A DNA stretch of 63,970 nucleotides, filler included, from Dirinaria sp. TL-2023a (Eukaryota): the NCBI GenBank assembly GCA_051941275.1. It is 42 parts of 42 records of this genome, joined end to end, with 100 filler letters (N's around TTAATTAATTAA, not from the genome) between each part and the next. Parts side by side here need not be neighbours in the genome. Positions count along the whole stretch, not along the records: positions 7,818 to 9,278 come from JAVEBF010002720.1; 41 more parts are not named here. The stretch is one strand, 5' to 3'. The stretch's first letter is position 1. Each line of letters starts with the position of its first letter. Both the position numbers and the translations under genes were made by a program. The notes under the pieces were generated by a model. It was not told the origin of the DNA, searched no databases, and saw only the letters and a program-made list of their open reading frames with translations. Shown here in pieces: positions 686-63,789 of the stretch.

Positions 686-934
686 TGTCAGGACCGGTGT
701 AGAAGGTATGATTTATGCAGGTGCTATCAACTAAATACACAAAGCATGAAGAAGGAAAGAAATCTATAAACTAGAACCAGGCATTATATGGATGTGTGGG
801 CGTTGGACCCTGATCGGTCGGACCGATCATCACTTCGGATGCGCTAACCTCGATCAGATCAAAACTCAACATCACACACAAAAACCTTGTATAAAATGAC
901 TCGAGTAACAACAGTGAGAGTCATACTCGTAACA
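686..934 (-). repeat. 3' LTR of a Ty3/gypsy chromovirus (LTR family A)
   Basis: Reads TGTTAC...TGACA on the minus strand and is preceded by the polypurine tract GAGAGAGAGGGGTAG. Homologous copies at 43907-44155 and 50915-51163. Confidence 0.9.
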
Positions 935-3131: not shown

Positions 3132-4594
3132 GTGTCATTGATCACGAATAAAGTTGACATCTTGACTGAATATGTTAAAGTCGGCGTCAATGTTGAAGGA
3201 GTACAAGCAACAATCAAGACATGATTAGTGAATGTGATTATATACGATCTGCTTCTTGATCTTACGTGAATGCGAAGAGTTCACTGTAATTCACATTATG
3301 ATCTGAGAGTGATCACGATTAATGAAGATGACGACTTATCTCGACAAGTACAAGCACGACTAGCTCCTTTAGAAACAACCCTCTTCGTCGTTGAGTTCGA
3401 CGACGATGACGACGAGTCGACAGATCAGGCTTGTCAAGATTTAATTGATGAGCAGAAAAACATTCAGCTCTGATCATCGAAACAGAGAGAGATCAGAGCT
3501 ATGATAAATCTGCAAAACAACATCAGCATGCTTTGTTTGCTTTGTCAAAATCTATCGATATTAACACATTCTTATCAGCAGCAATTTTAACACATTCATC
3601 AGAGACTGACGAAGCTCAAATCTTTTCAATAGATTGTAAGTTCCATAGTGCACGAAAAGTACTCAAGTATGCTTTAGAAAAGGAAGAGAATTTCTTTATT
3701 GAACGACGATCAATGAAGAGAATGCTTTCTAAAATACTCTTATCAGAGATTCAAGCATGAGTACAAGAAAGCGAAATAATTATAGAGTCTAAAGCAGATA
3801 CATCTCGTCGTCGCGAACTCGCGCAACGATTGATATACACATGAAAGAACTGCTTCGCTCCTCGTATTAGAAATATTAAAGTAACAGATTTGATAGAATA
3901 TTCTATTGATTTGAAATCAAATGCGAGATCGATCATTAACTTCTTGCTCAAATACACTATGACAGAGAGAGAATTTGTCAATCGCATTTTTTCAGAGCTA
4001 AAAGAAGTCGACATAATAGCACGAAGAAGCAGCTCTTGAGAACATCGAATTAAGTTTTCATCAAAGAAGAAAGATTCGTCTCTGCTTCGAGTGATTCACA
4101 ATTTCATATCGATGAATAAATACATTATCAAGTCGATCTATCTCGTACATCATTTGAAAGAAGTAATCATCACTCTGATTGCTTCAGACTTTGATGTTTA
4201 CTTCATGACGAATGTCTTCAATTCTTACTGAGCAATATCAATGAAGTTCTCAGATCAAAACAAAATAGACTTTCTTACTTCAAATGATCAATGAGTCTAT
4301 CTGAGAATGAAACAGAGACTCAAGAGAGCATCGCACACGTATTCTCAATTTGATGATTTTGTTTTTGATTTCTTGTCAAGCAACATCGAGGACATTGAGA
4401 AGATGTCAACATTATTTGAGCGTTTCGAAAATCATGCATTTCAAATTTACATGAACGATCATTCTGTTTCAGCACGAGATTTTGAAGCAATGTTCATCTT
4501 TTTACACGAAAGTTATTTCTCAAAAGTTGCTTTTGAGTCGATTTATTTATCAGATGCTAAAACGCATGTTTTTTCAGATAGTTTAGAGATGTTG
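3132..4594 (+). mobile_element. Decayed Ty3/gypsy pol (protease end plus reverse transcriptase)
   Basis: YDLLLDLT* (from YDLLLGxxW), RVIHNF, YLRMKQRLKRASHTY (from MGQGLKGAPHTY), FQIYMND (from YMDD); many TGA stops. Confidence 0.85.
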
Positions 4595-9200: not shown

Positions 9201-9278
9201 TGTAAGATCGTATGCGTCGATTATCCGCCGACGCAGTACTTGTGTGAAAGACGTGGCAGTGTAATAGATTATATAGCT
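9201..9278 (+). repeat. Partial LTR-like repeat, family D
   Basis: Starts TGTAAG; matches 59431-59495, 40031-40120, 40121-40512 and 61089-61327. Confidence 0.85.
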
Positions 9279-10131
9279 NNNNNNNNNNNNNNNNNNNNNN
9301 NNNNNNNNNNNNNNNNNNNNNNTTAATTAATTAANNNNNNNNNNNNNNNNNNNNNNNNNNNNNNNNNNNNNNNNNNNNCATTGATTCCTCCTCTCAGCAC
9401 TCCACCCCTTGGAAAGGAGTCTGCTGTAGTTTTAACCCTTACGCTATCGAGGATTTGTTAGCGGGATGGAAGGGGTTATTTACGGTCATATAGGGAACAG
9501 ACCTTTGTACAGAAGAGCACGGAAATGCGAAGACGGGGCAAACAGAGCCTTGGAAACGATTATTACATGCTAAGAGATTCAACTTTATGGAGCTCTATTG
9601 GTTTTCTTGCTTTTTTACTTACGCTACTGCTTTCTTCGGAGATACGTGATGGCTGTACGCCGATTACAAGTCTTGCAATTGAAGGAATACCCACCCACAT
9701 TGCTAGACAGCTATGGTGGTAGTATCATTCAATTCCAACAACACGTTCCCCGTTTGTGAACAGATCTTCACGGATGACAGGTTACCACACCAATTTGCTG
9801 ACCCCTCCTATCTGGAAATCTGTGCGGGACAAGTGGACTCTTTATTTGATCAGATATTCTACTGTTTCCTCGCAGCAGTCAATTTCTCAAGCCTCACGTC
9901 TTGAGTTTCATATAAGGTGGGTGAACGACAGATATCGAAATTGGCCCAGCACCTGATTAGACACCATTGATAAAGCGTAATTGTTGTTGTTTTTTTTTTT
10001 CCTTCGAAAAATGGACGCGCTCATCTTTATGCTCTGCTTCATGAGACTGGAGCCCGGATAGGGGGTTCCTGCATATACATACACGGCGTTCATGACCTGT
10101 TTCGAGAAAAGCCACATCACCTCGATCGCTT

Positions 10132-15578: not shown

Positions 15579-16144
15579 CATCCAACGGTCATGTCACAGT
15601 AGTGCAGATGCTGCTCGATCACAAGGCAGATGTCAACGCGCAAGGCGGAGAATATGGCAACGCACTGCAGGCGGCGGCATCCAACGGTCATGTCACAGTA
15701 GTGCAGATGCTGCTCGATCACAAGGCGGATGTCAACGCGCAAGACCGATATTTTGGCAGCGCACTGCAGGCGGCGGCATACAACGGTCATGTCACAGTAG
15801 TGCAGATGCTGCTCGATCGCAAGGCAGATGTCAACGCGCAAAGCGGAAAGTATGGCAACGCACTGCAGGCGGCGGCATACAAAGGTCATGTCACAGTAGT
15901 GCAGATGCTGCTCGATCACAAGGCAGATGTCAACGCGCAAAACAGATATTTTGACAGCGCACTGCAGACGGCGGCATACCAAGGTCATGACACTGTAGTA
16001 CAGATCCTGCTTGAGAACGGAGCCTCTGTCGATACTTTAGATGAAAAGGAAAAGGATTGGGTGCTTGAAAAATATTTAGACGTAATATCACGTCGCAATA
16101 ATAATATGAATGCGCCTCCCCACCGGATGCCCGACTCGGGGTGA
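15579..16144 (+). CDS. Ankyrin-repeat protein C-terminus (NLR/NACHT-ANK type)
   Basis: Four near-identical 99-bp units encoding GHVTVVQMLLDHKADVNAQxxxYGxALQAAA, plus a capping repeat. Confidence 0.92.
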
Positions 16145-21739: not shown

Positions 21740-23173
21740 ATATAACTGTGAAAAATCGATATTTATTATCAAACATTGAAGAACTACAGAATCGCTTATC
21801 AAAAGCTCGATACTTTATCAAACTGAATTTAAAAGAAGTTTACAGTCTTATACGAATGAAAGAAAACGAGAAATGAAAAACAGTTTTTCGAACACGATAT
21901 AAATATTACGAATATTTGATCATGTCATTTGAACTCACAAACGCGTTTGCAACATGTCAAGAAATGATTAACGATATACTCAAAAAATATTTAAACGATT
22001 TTGTGATCGTTTATCTTGATAATATATTGATTTATTCCACGATTTTAAAACAACACGTGAAACATGTCAATCAAGTTTTGAAAAAACTAAACGAGAGAGA
22101 CATGAAGATCAAATTAAAGAAATGTGAATTTTATCGAAAAGAAATCGATTTCTTGAATTTCATCATCGAAAGAAACGAAATTCGCATTGATTTTCGCAAA
22201 CTGCAAGCAGTTCGAAACTGACAGACATCAACAACTGTGAAGAAAATACAATCTTTTCTCGATTTCACAAATTACAATCGAAAGTTCATCAGAGACTACT
22301 CTAAAAAGATAGTATCTTTAACTAAACTCACTGCGAAAAATACTCAATGAATCTGAGAAAAGAACGAACAAGAAACATTCGAACAATTGAAAAAGACATG
22401 TTTGAAAAAATCAACACTTAGAATGTTTGACGAAACGAAATCAATACGAATCGAAACTGATGCATCAGATTTGACTATAAAAGTTTGTCTGTGTCAGAAA
22501 AAACAGAGCAAATGACACTCGATAATATATTTCTCGAGAAAATTATCGTCAGCTGAACAGAACTACGACATACAGAACAAGAAATTGCTAGTTATCGTAA
22601 CATTCTTGAAAATCTAAAAAGTATATGCGAAAGAAGTATTTGAATTTGAGATACTAACGAATCATAAAAACTTGCTGCACTTTACGACAATAAAGTAGCT
22701 AAATCGAAGACAAATCAAATGATCGAAACTTTTTGAACAGTACAAATTTACTATACGATATACGTCAGAAAAAGACAATAACAGAGCGAACGCATTAAAT
22801 CGACGAAACGATTATATGAAAAATAAAACGAAGTTCAATCATAGCATATTAAAAGTGAATCAAAATGAATCACTATCGACAACCAAAACTCAGAAATTGA
22901 ATGCAACACTGCGCATATTTCGAGACGATTAAGAGCAATACTTTATATAGAGAAGAAAGTTGCAAATATCGACAAACAAGATTAAGAATTGTATTAAAAA
23001 ATATCACGATTAGTCACTGCAGAGACATTCGAGAATATTCAAAACATTGCGGCTTTTACGACAGAATTGTTAGTTTTTACATATGAGACAAGAGATCGAG
23101 ACATACGTTAGACGATGCTTTAGCTGTTAGAAGAATAAACATGCAACTCATGTTAAATACGAAGAATTGCAGT
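21740..23173 (+). mobile_element. Decayed Ty3/gypsy pol (RT, RNase H, start of integrase)
   Basis: E K*KTVFRTRY..MSFELTNAFATCQ (from MPFGLTNAPAT), VYLDNILIYS, IETDASD, EQNYDIQNKKLL, TNHKNL. Confidence 0.93.
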
Positions 23174-40030: not shown

Positions 40031-40512
40031 ACAGTATGAGGTAGCCATATAATCTATTACACTGCCACGTCTTTCACACAAGTACTGCGTCGGCGGGTAA
40101 CCGGCGCATACGACCTTACAACAGATATATATTGATCAATGCAGGCTAGCGCCACTTGGTAGCCGGGGGTGCTCAGGGGCAATCCTTCGGGGTCTGAAGC
40201 ATGGCTAGCGCCGTCTAAGAGTCAGGGTCGGAAGGTTGAATCTCGAGACTGATTAGAAGTCAGTGCGCAGTTGACACTTATAAAGCATTGTGCCTACGAG
40301 CGCTCGTGACTCGTCAGCGCGGGGCTCGTCATGGTGAGGCAATGTTGACGCTCGCGTTTAAGTATAGAGGACCACTCACCCTTTCGGAGGGGGGTCCTTA
40401 GTGATTAGTTCTAGCAGGAACTACAGTATCAGGTAGCCGTATAACCTATTACACTGCCACGTCTTTCACATAAATACTGCGCCGGCGGGTAACCGGCGCA
40501 TACGACCTTACA
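40031..40512 (-). repeat. Two abutting family D LTR-like copies (40031-40120 and 40121-40512)
   Basis: The same terminus, ..GCATACGACCTTACA, occurs at 40120 and 40512. Confidence 0.85.
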
Positions 40513-43060: not shown

Positions 43061-44155
43061 GTGCGCGAGCGACGACGAGCTCTGCAGTCAGTCGCTCGTT
43101 TTCAACTCTCAATGAATCGGCATCTTGCGATATTTCGCGTTGTGCGCGAGCGACAGCGAGCTCTGCATTCAATCGTTCATTTTCGACTCTTAGTTGATGA
43201 TTTTTCTCATTCAGACGAGCATTCTCGTTCTTCGCACGATCGTGTCTGATCTGTAGTTTACTTCAATCGTTTCTTCATTTATTGACTTTCTCTCGAGACT
43301 GATTATGACGATCTTGAGTCTCAATGACAATATTATTGATCTCGTCGCGTTTCTTAACTAGCTCATTTTAATCGTCGACGCAATGAAGAGTAGTATCGCG
43401 TTTCAGACGACTCATTTTCATCGAGTTTAGCATCTCAACAGAGCGTTTGTTTACTCAGAATTGTAACTGTGAGATCGTATGTATATTCTTCGAGATGTTT
43501 GCTTCTTCTGACTCTGCGGAGACAGTATCTGACATCATCGATACGCGTCGTTTTTCTGTCTTCTTCAATAATCAAGTTATGCGTTGCTGAGACGTCATTG
43601 TCAACTCATCTGAGAACTTCGATAACAGTTGTCGCGTCGACGTCTCTTCTTTTTTCTGTTTCTGAGTCTGAGTATGTGCTTGCGTCTATTACGTCTGTGC
43701 TCTCTCGTTGGCGTCTCTAGTCATTGCTGATATCATCAATCAAATCGTACTTCTTTCTGATTACCTCGCGAAGCAACGAGAGCAAAGAATAAGATGTGTA
43801 AACAACAGTGTTTAGTTCAATTGTAGATGATGACACAGATGTTGTTGCGATTGTTTGAAACTCGTACAATTGCAAAACGAGATAAGGGGTTTGATGTTTT
43901 GTGTAATGTCAGGACCGATGCAGAATGTATGATCTATGCAGATGCTATCAACTAAATACACAAAGCATGAAGAAGAAAAGAAATCTATGAACTGAAATCA
44001 GGCATAATATGAATGTGTGAGCGTTGAACCCTAATCGATCGGACCGACCACCACTTCGGATGCGCTAACCCCGATCAGGTCAAAACTTAACATCACACAC
44101 AAAAACCTTGTAGAAAATGACCCGGGTAACAACAGTGAGAGTCAGACTCGTAACA
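43061..44155 (-). mobile_element. 5' LTR (43907-44155) plus decayed leader/gag of family A
   Basis: Same LTR as 686-934; the internal part is collinear with 50612-50914 and 61680-62480. Confidence 0.88.
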
Positions 44156-46087: not shown

Positions 46088-47496
46088 GGAGAAACTGTAG
46101 GGTTACCGCAGGGTTATGACTAAATCATTAGTAAAACACCAAGCACCAGGAAATTTGCGCACACACATCTACCTCATCATCTGCACCTGCACCTGCACCT
46201 GCCTAGGTAAGATAACTACGCAAAGCAATGGCGTGTAAGTTGGCTATCTCCTGAAAAGCCTGGGTAGAAAGTACTGCTAAATCCACCGCGCAGGCACCAT
46301 AGGATAAGTCGGCAAACCGTCTTTACACCTACTGCACCTACTACACCTACCTTACTGCACCTGCTGCATCATGACTTCACTACCCACGCCGGGGTTTCGC
46401 GAAAGCGAATATGTGACCTCAGAACCTGCTTCGATCATGCCGCCGCCGTCAATTGACGATGCGGAGTACGCGACCGATGAAGCGCTTATTCATGCTTTGA
46501 ATCTCTTTACCAAAGAGCATGGCTATGCCGTTATCATTAGAAGCTCTGCTAAATCACCTCAAGGCGTGAGAAACAAAATCTACATACGCTGCACACGAGG
46601 AGGCAAGCCGGACTCTAAAGCTCATGCATCTAAGCGACCTCTTGCAGGTAGCAGACTCATTGACTGCCCTTTTCGCGCCGTCGCCAGAATGGAGAACGAT
46701 AAGTGGAAGCTCACAGAGATACTACATTCGAAGCATAATCACGAAGGCGGCAAGGAGGGTTCTCATCCTTACTTAAGGCGATACTTCATGACCGAGGAGG
46801 TTCGCGAGGTCATAGCAGATCTACATGGCAGCGGTTCAACGCCGCAGCAAATCCTCAATTACCTTCGCATTAAATTTCAAATGGAGGTGGACAACTGTGT
46901 TATCGGCATTCAGGATATTTACAACGCTTTGCAAGTTATGAGGCAACAAGAGCTGGGAAATCTAACACCCATACAAGCTTTGAATGTTCAATTGCATGCT
47001 ACGGAGGGCACTTGGAGCACTATGATACAAGTCAATGAAGATACTCGCAAATTGGAGTATCTCTTCTTCATCAACGATGCTTCCATGGATATTCTTCGAG
47101 CCAATGGCGAGGTCTTGATCATTGATTGCACATACAGGACCAATCGCTATGGCATGCCTCTTGCTATTCTCACCGGTGTTACGAGTCTCAATACATCCTT
47201 TTATGCCGGAATGGCCTTCTTGATGGGCGAAAAGTTGGAAGGTTATCGATGGCTTATTCGCTCTATACGCTTTTTATATAAGCATTTGAATATACCGCTC
47301 CCTAAGGTATGGCTTTCTGACGGCGAGCCAAACATTCCTGAGGCCATTGCTTTAGAGATATCGCCAAATGAAGTTCATCTTCTATGTGTGTGGCATATCG
47401 AAAACAACATACTCACCAATTGCCGAAAATACTTCGACAAGAAAGGTTGGACAGAGTTTTTTCAGAACTCAGATGATACTAAACCCATTGGAGACT
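46088..47496 (+). mobile_element. Mutator-like (MULE) DNA transposon, left part; transposase ORF 46371->47496 is intact
   Basis: FAR1/WRKY-like domain (YIRCTRGG..IDCPF..HNH) and DDE-core motifs IDCTYRTNRYGMPL, WLSDGE and LLCVWHI; CACCT(A/G)C subterminal repeats upstream. Confidence 0.93.
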
Positions 47497-50611: not shown

Positions 50612-51163
50612 AACTCATCTGAGAACTTCGATAGCAGTTGCCGCGTCGACGTCTCTTTTTTTTTTATTTTTGAGTCTGAGCATGTGTTTGCGTTTGTTGC
50701 GTCTGCGCTCTCTCGTTGACGTCTTTAATCATTGCTGATATCATCAATCAAATCGTATTTCTTTCTTATTATCTCGCGAAGCAACGAGAGCAAAAAGTAA
50801 AATGTGTAAACAACAGTGTTCAGTTCAATTGTAAATAATAACACAGATGTTGTTGCGATTGTTTGAAACTCGTACAATTGTAAAACGAGATAAGAGATTT
50901 GATGCTTTGTGTAATATCAGAACCGATGCAGAAAGTATGATCTATGCAGATATTATCAACTAAATACACAAAGCATGAAGAAGAAAAGAAATCTATGAAC
51001 TGAAACTAGACATAATATGAATGTGTGAGCGTTGGACCCTGATCGGCCGGACCGACCACCACTTCGGATACGCTAGCCCCGATCAGGTCAAAACTCAACA
51101 CCACATATAAAAAGCTTGTAGAAAATGACCCGGGTAACAACAGTGAGAACCAGGCTCGTAACA
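50612..51163 (-). mobile_element. 5' LTR (50915-51163) plus leader of family A
   Basis: Collinear with 43605-44155. Confidence 0.88.
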
Positions 51164-57435: not shown

Positions 57436-58152
57436 AGAAGTCACGACCACAGATATCGTTATCACGATCAAGATTGACTTCGTTGTGTGCTTACCTATGT
57501 AATTTAGGTTTGGTTCTTGAGGGGTTTTGGCGGGGAGATGAGATCAGTAGGGTGGAGCGTTGAAGAAGAGTGGAGGAACTATTGAAGGGGCGCATGTTGC
57601 AGTTTGCGAGAGCCATTTTTTGTGTCATTGGTCTAATAGGGTGAGGTGCTTCTTTGCTTTTTTCTTAGCCAAAAGCCGGAGTCATCGAGTACGCAACGAT
57701 GAGTTGGTCGTCTGTCTTGAAACACTGTAGATTTGTCATCCTCAGCCATCACTATTTTCAGGCCCCCTTTCACCCTTTCACTCGAGAAACATCTATCGTT
57801 GAGTGGAGTAGTAGAAGATAGTGCTAAGCTCATCTTCGAAGGGAAAAAAAAGAGAAGAAAAAAACTGGACATAAGAGAAAGCTAAACCCCCAAAAAAGAA
57901 AGAAAAACAAAAAAAAAGGAGAAAATGTCACGAACCAAAACCCCCAAGGAAAAGGAAAAGAAAAACTCACCCTCCACAAAGCCCCCACCCCCTCATCCAA
58001 CNNNNNNNNNNNNNNNNNNNNNNNNNNNNNNNNNNNNNNNNNNNNTTAATTAATTAANNNNNNNNNNNNNNNNNNNNNNNNNNNNNNNNNNNNNNNNNNN
58101 NAGATTTGACGACAAACAATATCGAGAAAGCATAAGAAGCATAACTCGAACT

Positions 58153-58285
58153 TGTCAAAGACCCAACCTTGGTTAGATAGGTTTTCCAATGGTAAAAGTC
58201 CCGGCAGCGCCAAAAGACTAACTAAACCAAGTCAAAGAACTTGATGCCTATCTTACTACTTGGTTTTGTTTCCAGGGTTGTAACA
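58153..58285 (-). repeat. Very short (~130 bp) LTR, family F
   Basis: TGTTAC...TGACA; second copy at 62857-62986. Confidence 0.85.
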
Positions 58286-59430
58286 TGCGAAACGTCGTTT
58301 TTCATTCATCGCTCTGTTTAATGCGTATTCGATAATAGACATCTTTAAGATCTAATTTTGTAAATGCTTTAGCTTCACTCAGACGATTCAGTGTCTTAGT
58401 TATAAGAGATAAGAAATGACGATTTTTAATTGTAATCGCGTTTAGCTCTCTATAATTTACACATAATCGTAGTTCTTTATCTTTTTTAGATACAAAAAGA
58501 ATCGAAGCTTCTGTTGACGAAACGAAACGACGAATTCAGCTCTTTCTTAGAGCGTTCTTTAGATAGCGTCGCAGCTCAGTCAGCTCGATCTGAGAAAGAT
58601 TGTATAAAAGCATAAAGAGTGATTCTCGACTCTTCATTAAATCAATAACATAACTTTTCTGATTTTGTTCAGACAGAATCTCGACTTTCTCGTTATCAAA
58701 TTGATTTCGAAACTTCAACAGCTTTTTGAGCATTGAAAGTTTCGATTTCGATTGACTTGTCGTCGTCGTTACATCGACGCAAATCAGTGTATACACTCGT
58801 TGCTATCTCGTTAGATCTATGACAAAATTGACGAGTTCAAAGATTTCGAATTTTTCGAAGACAATTTTGAATCGTCAATTTGCTGTCTCTAGATTTAACA
58901 AAATACTCTGACTTGCAAGCATGAGCATGCTCAAAATCAAATCGAGATCGACAAAATCAACTGTATAAAACAGAGTAATACATTCGCGACTCTGTTCTCA
59001 AGAGTCAACTAGTTAGTAGATGAGTTCATAAACGTCATAGCAATAGCGGCTCTCTTCGTCTAGAAATCTCGACAGCGACAAGACGACGACTATCTGCGAT
59101 AAGTTTCACTGAATAACAAACGCGTTGTTAATCAAATCTAGCTTTGCTTCGAAATTCAGAAGAGCTTTAATTTGACGCTTATCTCTCTGAAATATCGCTC
59201 ATTTCTTAGTTACGATGAGGTCGATCGTCTCAACTGATCTTTTTTGCTTCGTTTCTGAGACGCTTGCGAAGCGTCGAAGTTTTTTAAATTCACGACGTCG
59301 TCTACGACAATGTCTAAATTTGAGAGTTTTGAACACGACTTACTTCAGCGTTCAAACTCGTCACAATTATAACAAGCGTCTGACTCTTTATTCGCAGAGT
59401 CATCGACGTTGCGACGTTTTTGATTCGATC
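58286..59430 (-). mobile_element. Decayed gypsy gag end, protease and RT
   Basis: LYNLSQIELTELRRYL..SILFVSKKDKELRLCVNYRELN (from APILFVPKKDGxLRLCVDYRGLN)..DE*KTTFR. Confidence 0.92.
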
Positions 59431-59495
59431 TGTAAGGTCGTATGCGCCGGTTACCCGCCGGCGCAGTACTTGTGTGAAAGACGTGGCAGTGTAAT
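59431..59495 (+). repeat. Partial LTR-like repeat, family D (least mutated copy)
   Basis: TGTAAGGTCGTATGCGCCGG...; abuts the gypsy gag region. Confidence 0.85.
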
Positions 59496-61088: not shown

Positions 61089-61327
61089 ACGCTTATAGAG
61101 CATTGTGCCTACGAGCGCTCGTGACCCGCCAGCGCGGGGCTCGTCATGATGGGACAATGTTGACGCTCGCGGTTAAGTATAGGGGACCACCCACCCTTTC
61201 GGAGGGGGGTCCTTAGTTATTAGTTCTAGCAGGAACTATAGTACCAGGTAGCCGTATAACCTATTACACTGCCACGTCTTTCACATAAGTACTGCGCCGG
61301 CGGGTAACCGACGCATACGACCTTACA
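61089..61327 (-). repeat. Partial LTR-like repeat, family D, inserted in family A gag
   Basis: Matches 40275-40512. Confidence 0.85.
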
Positions 61328-62480
61328 CTCATGATTAACTTTTTTTTCTTTATTGACTTCATCATACACGTTTTTCAGTATCTCAAGAATCATCAGATGA
61401 TTCTGAAAATAAAACTTGTTCGCAATGCGATATGCGTTAATGTGAGTAATCGTCTCATCGTCAACGCGTTGCATAATATAAATCGCTTTAACATCTTTCG
61501 AAACGAAGTGATTCTCATTGAAAATTAACTTGTCGACTATTTTATTGAATCAATTCTCGTATATCGAGTTTTTGTCATCAATAAACATAGACGAATCAGA
61601 CATTTTGACTGATCGTTGTACATGCGTCTAACTGTTTATTTGAGAGACATGAGATATTTCGCTCTGCGATACTTCGCGTTGTGCGCGAGCGACAGCGAGC
61701 TCTGCAGTCAATCGTTCGTTTTCAACTCTCAATGAATTGACATTTTGAGATACTTCGCGTTGAGTACGAGCGACGACGAGTTTCGCATTCAATCGTTCAT
61801 TTTCGATTTTTAATTGATTATTTTTCTCATTCAGACGAGCATTCTCGTTCTTCGCACGATCGTGTCTGATCTGTAGTTTACTTCAATCGTTTCTTCATTT
61901 ATTGACTTTCTTTCGAGACTGATTATAACGATCTTGAGTCTCAATTACAATATCATTGATCTCGTCGCGCTTTTTAATTAGCTCATTTCAATCGTCGACG
62001 CAATGAAAAGCAGTGTCGCGTTTTAGACGACTCATTTTCATCGAGTTTAGCATCTCAATAGAACGTTTGTTTACTCAGAATTGTAACTGTGAGATCGTAT
62101 ATATATTCTTCGAGATACTTGCTTCTTCTGATTCTGCGAGAGCAGTATCTAACATCATCGATACGCGTCGTTTTTCTGTCTTTTTCAATAATCAAGTCAT
62201 ACGTTGCTAAGACGTCATTGTCAACTCATCTGAGAACTTCGATAACAGTTGTCGCGTCGACGTCTCTTCTTTTTTCTACTTCTGAGTCTGAGCATGTGCT
62301 TGCGTCTGTTGCGTCTGTGCGCTTGCGTTGACGTCTTTCATCATTGCTGATATCATCAATCAAATCGTATTTCTTTCTTTTTATCTCGCGAAACAACGAG
62401 AGCAAAGAGTAAGATGTGTAAACAACAATGTTCAGTTCAATTGTAGATAATAACACAAATGTTGTTGCGATTGTTTAAAA
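61328..62480 (-). mobile_element. Decayed gag/leader of family A
   Basis: Collinear with 43061-43860; no CC or GG seen on a manual scan. Confidence 0.85.
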
Positions 62481-62647: not shown

Positions 62648-62852
62648 TGTCATGAACCTAGACCTGAAGCACCTTAGGTCAGGTCACATGATCAGGTCAC
62701 ATGATCAGACTCAGCGTTCTCTCGGACCGATATTGCTTCGGGTCCCTATTTGAGTCTTTCTGTAGATAGATTTTCTTTTCTTTTCTTTCTTATAGATAGT
62801 GTTCTAGTCTACTAGCACTCATATGTCATTGAGCGCTGTGCAGGTCCTGACA
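62648..62852 (+). repeat. 3' LTR, family E
   Basis: Polypurine tract GAAGGGGGAGGG followed by TGTCA...TGACA; second copy at 63585-63789. Confidence 0.9.
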
Positions 62853-62856
62853 TTAG

Positions 62857-62986
62857 TGTTACGATCCTGGAACACCTAAGTAGTAAGATAGGCATCAAGT
62901 CCCTTGACTTGGTTTAGTTAGTCTTTTGGCGCTGTCGGGACTTTTATCATTGAGAAATCTATCTAATCAAGGTTGGGTCTTTGACA
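62857..62986 (+). repeat. Short LTR, family F
   Basis: Reverse complement of 58153-58285. Confidence 0.85.
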
Positions 62987-63239
62987 AGGGGGATCAAAAG
63001 TCAAACATCAAATACTTTCTTCGCGTCTCTCAACAAATCCTCTAGTCTCTCTTCTCACTCAAGCATCTTATTTTGATCTCTCTCTCATGATGAGTCGCTC
63101 GATGACTGTTATAGAGCTATTCTATTACAATTTCTCAATCAATAAGATATCAAGTTATTATACATTTAGTATTACAGAATCTTCGAGCAAGTCGACAATC
63201 GAGAAAACGAACTAGCTTCAATTTAAGCATGAGTCATCA

Positions 63240-63584: not shown

Positions 63585-63789
63585 TGTCATGAATCTAGAC
63601 CTGAAGCATCTTAGATTAGGTCACATGATCAGATCACATGATCAGGCTCAGCGTTCTCTCGAACCGATATTGCTTCGGGTCCCTATTTGAGTCTTTCTGT
63701 AGATAGATTTCCTTTCCTTTTCTTCTTCATAGTTAGTGTCCTAGTCTACTAGCACCCATATGCCATTGAGCGCTATGCAGGCCCTGACA
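63585..63789 (+). repeat. LTR, family E (second copy)
   Basis: TGTCA...TGACA; direct repeat of 62648-62852; no TSD. Confidence 0.9.

Follow-up and report, generated by a model that had tools for sequence, protein, structure and literature searches.

Introduction

RIP, as described for Neurospora and other Pezizomycotina, leads to C:G to T:A transitions on both strands, is concentrated in repeats, varies in degree among their copies and goes together with a RID-type gene. These features recur in the lichen repeats described here; however, in Neurospora the CpA context is prominent and the third base is reported to matter little (10.1101/344036), whereas in our material CpA is a minor context and the target is CCD (where D is not C). 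Only CpA, CpT and CpG signatures appear in the accessible text of a RIP survey of ten genomes (PMC4352252). In Pucciniomycotina, a RIP-like hypermutation with the trinucleotide target TpCpG has, as in the present study, been inferred from copy alignments (PMC3318451), but the motif differs, and it is found in another phylum and in fungi without RID. Closer to our organism, GC-depleted transposons and RID homologues have been described for the lichens Cladonia rangiformis and Xanthoria; as far as the accessible text of these reports goes, RIP in C. rangiformis was scored by GC content (10–20 % GC, as compared with ~30–37 % in the most depleted Dirinaria contigs), the word 'dinucleotide' is absent, DIM-2 was found, and the target context in Xanthoria is not named (PMC12542154, 10.1101/2025.11.25.690456). 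RIP is likewise reported or mentioned without a target context in the accessible text of another lichen paper (PMC13535494).

Both M.CviPII and its fellow chlorovirus enzyme M.CviQIX target the first C of CCD and set a precedent for a C5 methyltransferase that can read this motif, although they are viral nicking-modification enzymes and are listed as CC in the assay of the same paper (PMC9636781). No M.CviPII-like gene was present among the C5-methyltransferase matches of the genome studied here, which were RID and DNMT5 only. APOBEC3G also causes C to T changes in a CC motif on retroelements, but it edits the 3′ C, on one strand, which gives GG>AG. No CpC-dominant case was found in the accessible text of PMC7882544, PMC5737583, PMC5602860 and PMC5555474. 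Our literature search returned no report of CpC- or CCD-dominant RIP in the text that it covered; supplementary RIPCAL tables could bear on this point. The likeliest place for a precedent is the survey by Clutterbuck from 2011, which reportedly covers 49 genomes and is said to handle CpC contexts.

In this study, we examined repeats in the genome of a Dirinaria species, a genus of the Caliciales. We show that they have undergone a hypermutation of the first C of CCD which is real, robust and not an artefact, and we weigh the mechanisms that could account for it.

Results

The window, by which we mean the whole stretch of 63 970 nucleotides that was analysed, consists of ~42 unrelated contigs of ~1.4 kb, chained by artificial linkers (N44-TTAATTAATTAA-N44, for example at 9279..9378) that are identical at every join; because small contigs were joined artificially, pieces on the two sides of a run of Ns are unrelated. 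The source assembly comprises 27.7 Mb in 3105 contigs. A predicted eIF3L frame in the window has its best named matches in Lecanoromycetes (85 %) and, judged from its sequence, the host is a lichen-forming Lecanoromycete.

According to the initial annotation, two copies of a repeat referred to as family D (9201–9265 and 59431–59495) differ at exactly five of 65 positions, always at the 5′ C of CC, and both statements were borne out. The two copies are 5′ ends of an LTR on the + strand (9201..9278, locus L026, and 59431..59495, locus L001), each stopping at a contig end, and the overlap is short because the contig of the second copy ends at 59495. It is the 9201 copy that has all the T/A alleles: on the + strand, C was changed to T at two positions and G to A at three, giving five CCD>TCD changes, and all eight CC sites are intact in the other copy. 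As 5′ Cs of CC make up eight of the 36 C/G sites in the GC-richer copy, the hypergeometric probability of five out of five is 1.5e-4. The contexts on the C strand were ACC at three sites and GCC at two; an RCC motif, at which these five sites alone might hint, was ruled out by the rate at TCC given below. The same pattern had been claimed for family A and is indeed present there: the 249 bp LTR at 686..934 (+ strand) has the derived states CTCGAGT at 900 and ATCATC at 826, versus CCCGGGT at 44121 and 51129 and ACCACC at 44047 and 51055. The latter two copies belong to stretches of internal region plus LTR on the + strand (43061..44155, with the LTR at 43907–44155, and 50612..51163), and in the first of these the internal part is nearly free of CC, with leftover differences at CT and CA. 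Another family A internal region is located at 61681..62480 (+ strand).

Family D is an LTR of ~412 bp (TGTAAG...TGTTACA), for which a genome search gave 40 scored matches among 51 candidates. A 5 bp target-site duplication was seen in three of 18 complete copies, and one common internal sequence follows several copies. At locus L042 the LTR lies upstream of a frame that shares 70 % identity with an RT-RNase H polyprotein, which suggests that family D is a Ty3/Gypsy element. Further copies in the window, all on the − strand, are a 387 bp LTR (40126..40512, locus L003), after which a second copy follows head-to-tail, and 5′ parts stopping at contig ends at 40031..40120 and, with light mutation, at 61089..61327 (locus L008). 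The unmutated fragment at 59431..59495 adjoins a CC-depleted reverse-transcriptase relic (58102..59430, − strand) with 19 CC/GG as against ~92 expected. Family D LTRs form head-to-tail arrays in L028:679-1665 (with a 441 bp period) and in L003, and an inverted arrangement in L020. In the copies of L018, L042, L010 and L007 the LTR is mutated much less over its final ~100 bp than in the middle; possible readings are mosaic LTRs that arose via template switching, or selection.

Among the other repeats in the window, a family C LTR of ~205 bp adjoins a family E repeat of ~133 bp at 62648..62988 (+ strand), and both show the CCD bias of the other families; a second family C LTR is located at 63585–63789 and another family E copy at 58151–58285. 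Two contigs are almost devoid of CC/GG, one with three as against ~67 expected (21740..23173), which we read as the end state of the process, and one with 10 as against ~91 (3132..4594). Family E (62857–62988 and 58151–58285 in the window) occurs in same-strand pairs ~330–360 bp apart, like a miniature LTR element of ~470 bp (TRIM-like), and such pairs are also found in genome contigs C16, C265, C1216, C1361, C2260, C2355, C2472, C2538, C2677 and C2974. A MULE transposase frame at 46308–47495 is open and has a normal CC content; there are five MULE matches in the genome, two of them with stops, and locus L132 has terminal inverted repeats of 156 bp that are 95.5 % alike. Tandem 99 bp ankyrin-like coding repeats at 15579–16014, ~90 % alike, are without CC bias (17 transversions among 33 differences).

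To obtain C>T rates, every family was compared against its GC-richest real copy. In the 30 alignments of family D, 723 of 1774 CC sites were changed, as against 73/1073 for CA, 92/1349 for CT and 42/1518 for CG, and the changes were strongly directional, with 930 C>T/G>A changes, 122 reverse changes and 61 transversions. CC was also the top context in the family A LTR (292/933), family C (132/535), family E (142/788) and the family A internal region (23/38); over the five repeat sets, rates were 0.18–0.61 for CC and 0.015–0.12 for CA. When the 30 largest repeat clusters were counted all against all without polarisation, CC ranked first in 28, the exceptions being one cluster without CC sites and a small one (CA 0.087, CC 0.065). 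CT and CA are changed at a low rate (~0.05–0.11) and prevail after CC is exhausted.

Isolated CC sites in the five sets now read CC 1168 times, TC 811 times, CT 46 times and TT 35 times, and CC>CT is thus far from being as frequent as CC>TC. The base before CC is irrelevant (ACC 0.32, GCC 0.36, TCC 0.35, CCC 0.29), whereas the base after it matters (CCA 0.43, CCG 0.38, CCT 0.36, CCC 0.16). In runs of C the penultimate C is the hot position, and in three polarised pairs CCC had become CTC in 23 cases and TCC in one. From the effect of the 3′ base, the hot penultimate C and the CCC>CTC outcomes it follows that mutation is aimed at the first C of CCD, on either strand. The proposal that the 5′ C of CC mutates was therefore correct as regards the predominance of CC>TC, but does not extend to every CC, since CCC lags behind.

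It had also been stated that copy-to-copy comparison fixes the polarity of the changes. Two copies alone are insufficient for this purpose, but the polarity is fixed independently by premature stops and by a tandem pair. Our stop analysis was based on the 83 stops located in well-aligned stretches, out of 197 detected; 57 were TGA, 38 of them opposite Trp, and five were TAG, none opposite Trp. Because it is TGA and never TAG that stands opposite Trp, the change is C>T at the 5′ C. Proline was replaced by serine in 75 cases versus leucine in 11. The tandem pair is a direct repeat of 1324 bp at locus L146, the two copies of which differ at 96 sites; one difference is a transversion, and the other 95 are transitions that all fall in one copy. 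By context, the changes hit 81/140 CCD, 4/34 CCC, 3/196 CA, 5/160 CT and 2/100 CG sites.

Both strands are affected at similar rates in family D (+ strand 410/1059, − strand 313/715); of the 85 copies that carry four or more CC changes, 80 were changed on both strands rather than on one. This supports the earlier view of a duplex-DNA process such as RIP rather than single-strand cDNA editing. Locally, however, the strands are not hit evenly: in the mutated L146 copy 33/76 sites were changed on one strand versus 48/64 on the other (Fisher p = 2.7e-4), and neighbouring changes in 55 copies with moderate mutation lay on the same strand 235 times versus 208 ± 10 expected by chance, where the p value is generous because the copies are related. 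The pattern is thus, on statistical grounds, burst-like and strand-coordinated, and together with the one-sided transitions this coordination fits enzymatic bursts on duplex DNA over repeated rounds. The number of changes per copy in pairs of linked copies was 14 and 21 (L028), 9 and 19 (L084), and 95 and 0 (L146). Among family D copies, 0 to 100 % of the CCD sites are changed and all 46 sites are variable; site counts are not independent events because the copies share ancestry. Four gametes were present in 649 of 903 family D site pairs, conflicts which imply recurrence or recombination.

The observed/expected ratio of CC was 0.94 in unique DNA (192 kb) versus 0.60 in repeats (118 kb), and at reverse-transcriptase loci it was 0.29 in 14 broken versus 1.06 in two open ones. 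Judged by composition, single-copy DNA is spared and the loss is confined to repeats, with some long regions being intermediate. In the contigs of the window, the index (CC+GG)/(TC+GA) is mostly 0.7–1.3 in those with genes and falls to 0.01–0.3 in repeat relics; the affected elements comprise LTRs, a second class of reverse-transcriptase relics and a MULE relic with stops. Intermediate values were obtained for C4:20001-30000 (L099; 0.40–0.49) and for parts of C10 (L174, L175; ~0.5). The C4 region contains no frames of at least 230 aa, and a search for a partner copy gave short scattered repeat matches and no long duplicate. In 17 LTR flanks, which were chosen on the far bin and contain nested repeats, the index was 0.37–0.55 within 600 bp and 0.85 beyond. 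The TpA/ApT ratio was 0.76 in repeats versus 0.72 in unique DNA (0.68–0.76 overall), and (CpA+TpG)/(ApC+GpT) was 1.09–1.11, which is not the canonical CpA-type RIP signature. Because TpA/ApT is flat, the standard RIP indices, as defined in PMC2621366, are blind here.

With regard to coding capacity, transposon proteins lose Pro, Gly and Trp and gain TGA stops. In an open reverse-transcriptase frame, a stop could arise from five CCD sites (out of 145) versus 24 CA sites (out of 199), and with so few stops from CCD changes relics may keep long open frames almost without Pro, Gly and Trp. In two reverse-transcriptase relics, L109 and L114, the frame is open over 409 and 321 aa, respectively, and Pro makes up ~0.5 %, Gly ~1 % and Trp 0.2–0.3 % of the residues. 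Open-framed relics such as these could pass as live or intact genes in annotation.

Profile searches of the genome gave two C5-methyltransferase loci, a RID-type gene and a methyltransferase-SNF2 gene that we read as DNMT5. The RID-type ORF (L030) contains SPPCQ and TLEQT, in line with the Masc1/RID criterion of PCQ in motif IV and EQT or EET in motif VI, EQT being diagnostic (PMC6709928). It is identical to a protein with the genus label Dirinaria; the contig ends before the last exon of the gene, which could not be located elsewhere in the assembly. EQT is present in 117 of 120 RID homologues. In motif IV the gene has the variant PAHT, found in five of 120 homologues (DAHT in 104), and no link could be made between this variant and the CCD target. 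The presence of RID is weak evidence because RID is widespread and has other roles. The DNMT5-like gene (L143/L144, contig C712) has a long open frame, though CpG is the least mutated context in repeats. DIM-2 was not detected with the PF00145, TIGR00675 and PF25423 profiles and a RID protein query, which gave only RID and DNMT5; PF25423, which we take to be a profile tied to DIM-2, had no matches in the controls either. The absence of DIM-2 is not established by these searches, as the assembly is evidently incomplete, given that an exon of RID is missing from it. At L139, one of three BAH matches, no methyltransferase-like frame was found beside the match.

The same rule was found in a second lichen lineage. 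A Gypsy reverse-transcriptase scan of metagenome contigs gave 617 matches, the best of which correspond to 79 loci, and a 500 bp window with an index of ≤0.1 was present at 47 of the 53 loci from 14 JAABU-prefixed assemblies (in 13 of these assemblies) versus none of the 26 other loci. The JAABU assemblies have to be counted as one lineage because their elements are shared at 85–95 %. Comparison of L228 with the intact-looking L197 revealed 443 forward changes, five reverse changes and two transversions, distributed over 384/397 CCD, 30/88 CCC, 19/456 CG, 8/571 CT and 2/510 CA sites. In 25 JAABU alignments CC had become TC 5406 times versus CT 115 times, and CCC had become CTC 555 times versus TCC 27 times; the commonest outcome of CCCC was TCTC (133), which is what a stepwise CCD rule predicts. 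A host gene beside L199 has its best named matches in Letharia and Alectoria (60–61 %) and shares 57 % identity with the orthologue of the Dirinaria genome; on the evidence of this one gene, the JAABU host is a distant Lecanoromycete. The secondary context is CpG in the JAABU lineage, whereas CpG is the lowest in the Dirinaria genome. Locus L233 (JAABUJ) is CC-depleted but, unlike other JAABU loci, also loses CpA (observed/expected 0.61–0.83) and keeps CpG, and possibly represents a third context hierarchy.

Discussion

The CCD hypermutation described here is probably RIP proper with a CCD target, where we infer the homology trigger, the premeiotic timing and the enzyme. According to this model, repeated DNA would be marked, most likely through homology pairing before meiosis, and the first C of CCD would be engaged by an enzyme acting on cytosine C5, for which the RID orthologue is the likeliest candidate, with or without the help of a deaminase. 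This C would end as T on either strand of the duplex, with bursts locally favouring one strand; action on both strands and the motif are observed. Runs of C would be eroded stepwise over several rounds (CCC>CTC, CCCC>CCTC>TCTC), in keeping with the end patterns, and weaker contexts would accumulate once CC/GG is nearly exhausted. Two observations fit this model less well. RIP normally mutates both linked copies, whereas only one copy of the L146 tandem pair was mutated, for which a later insertion or a chimeric assembly would account. In addition, CC loss is intermediate over long stretches in which repeats are no more than scattered, and chromatin spreading would fit these equally.

The one-sided tandem pair and the long regions of intermediate depletion (C4:20-30 kb and C10) would fit an alternative in which silent chromatin rather than pairing picked the targets. 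In this case, an unassembled DIM-2-like enzyme or RID would methylate CCD during vegetative growth under the guidance of heterochromatin, and 5-methylcytosine would deaminate over time. DIM-2-dependent mutation is reported to spread into single-copy DNA in Neurospora (10.1101/115501), and chloroviruses have C5 methyltransferases directed at the first C of CCD (PMC9636781). We nevertheless regard this explanation as unlikely: DIM-2 was not detected in three profile searches and one protein search, although in a fragmented assembly and with one search lacking a positive control; 95 transitions to one transversion together with the strand coordination point to enzymatic bursts and not to slow decay; and CpG is mutated least of all contexts, despite the presence of the CpG enzyme DNMT5.

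It seems less probable still that the CCD context is set by a putative double-strand DNA cytosine deaminase, recruited by RIP-like or chromatin signals, with the specificity of RID unchanged. A two-step model with methylase and deaminase has been put forward for Neurospora, since DIM-2 mutates CpA although cytosines in all contexts are methylated by it (10.1101/115501), and the catalytic motifs of the lichen RID are ordinary, EQT being nearly universal among its homologues. However, this explanation can in part be regarded as a version of RIP proper with a CCD target, and the two are not mutually exclusive.

Lichens are exposed to the sun, CC and CT are dipyrimidines and the assembly is fragmented, so that UV photoproducts, damage to the specimen DNA or a sequencing or assembly artefact might be considered. 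We judge this to be very improbable, since there is no dependence on a 5′ pyrimidine (by the base 5′ of the mutated C, TCC does not exceed GCC, and TCG and CCG are at 0.02 and 0.01), tandem CC>TT changes are few (35 versus 811 CC>TC), unique DNA is spared while copies span the whole range of CCD changes, and the same rule holds in 13 other assemblies and at none of the 26 other loci. That the cDNA of retrotransposons was edited in the manner of APOBEC is hardly credible, as, although its targets are retroelements and its motif includes CC, the equal strand rates and the copies changed on both strands refute cDNA editing and, as the initial annotation had noted, the pattern is the opposite of that of APOBEC3G, with the 5′ and not the 3′ C changed and 38 TGA but no TAG opposite Trp.

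These findings also bear on the chemistry of RIP, which is still unsettled, as RID reportedly does not act as a methylase in vitro (PMC13297926) and the involvement of a separate deaminase has been suggested (10.1101/115501). A natural motif that is both sharp and different permits components to be swapped in order to see which part chooses the base. Furthermore, indices based on TpA score CCD repeats as untouched, and surveys of RIP and arguments about cryptic sex in lichens that rely on them would therefore miss the process, whereas (CC+GG)/(TC+GA) detects it. We tentatively suggest, as a possibility about which we remain doubtful, that several Lecanoromycete lineages run a RID-only, DIM-2-less form of RIP whose enzyme reads the trinucleotide CCD. 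If this is true, the target choice of RIP would have switched more than once within one fungal class, the lichen RID would be a natural specificity variant that could show whether RID or a deaminase picks the base, and a hidden share of the lichen genomes that have been scored as RIP-free or RIP-weak would in fact be heavily mutated.
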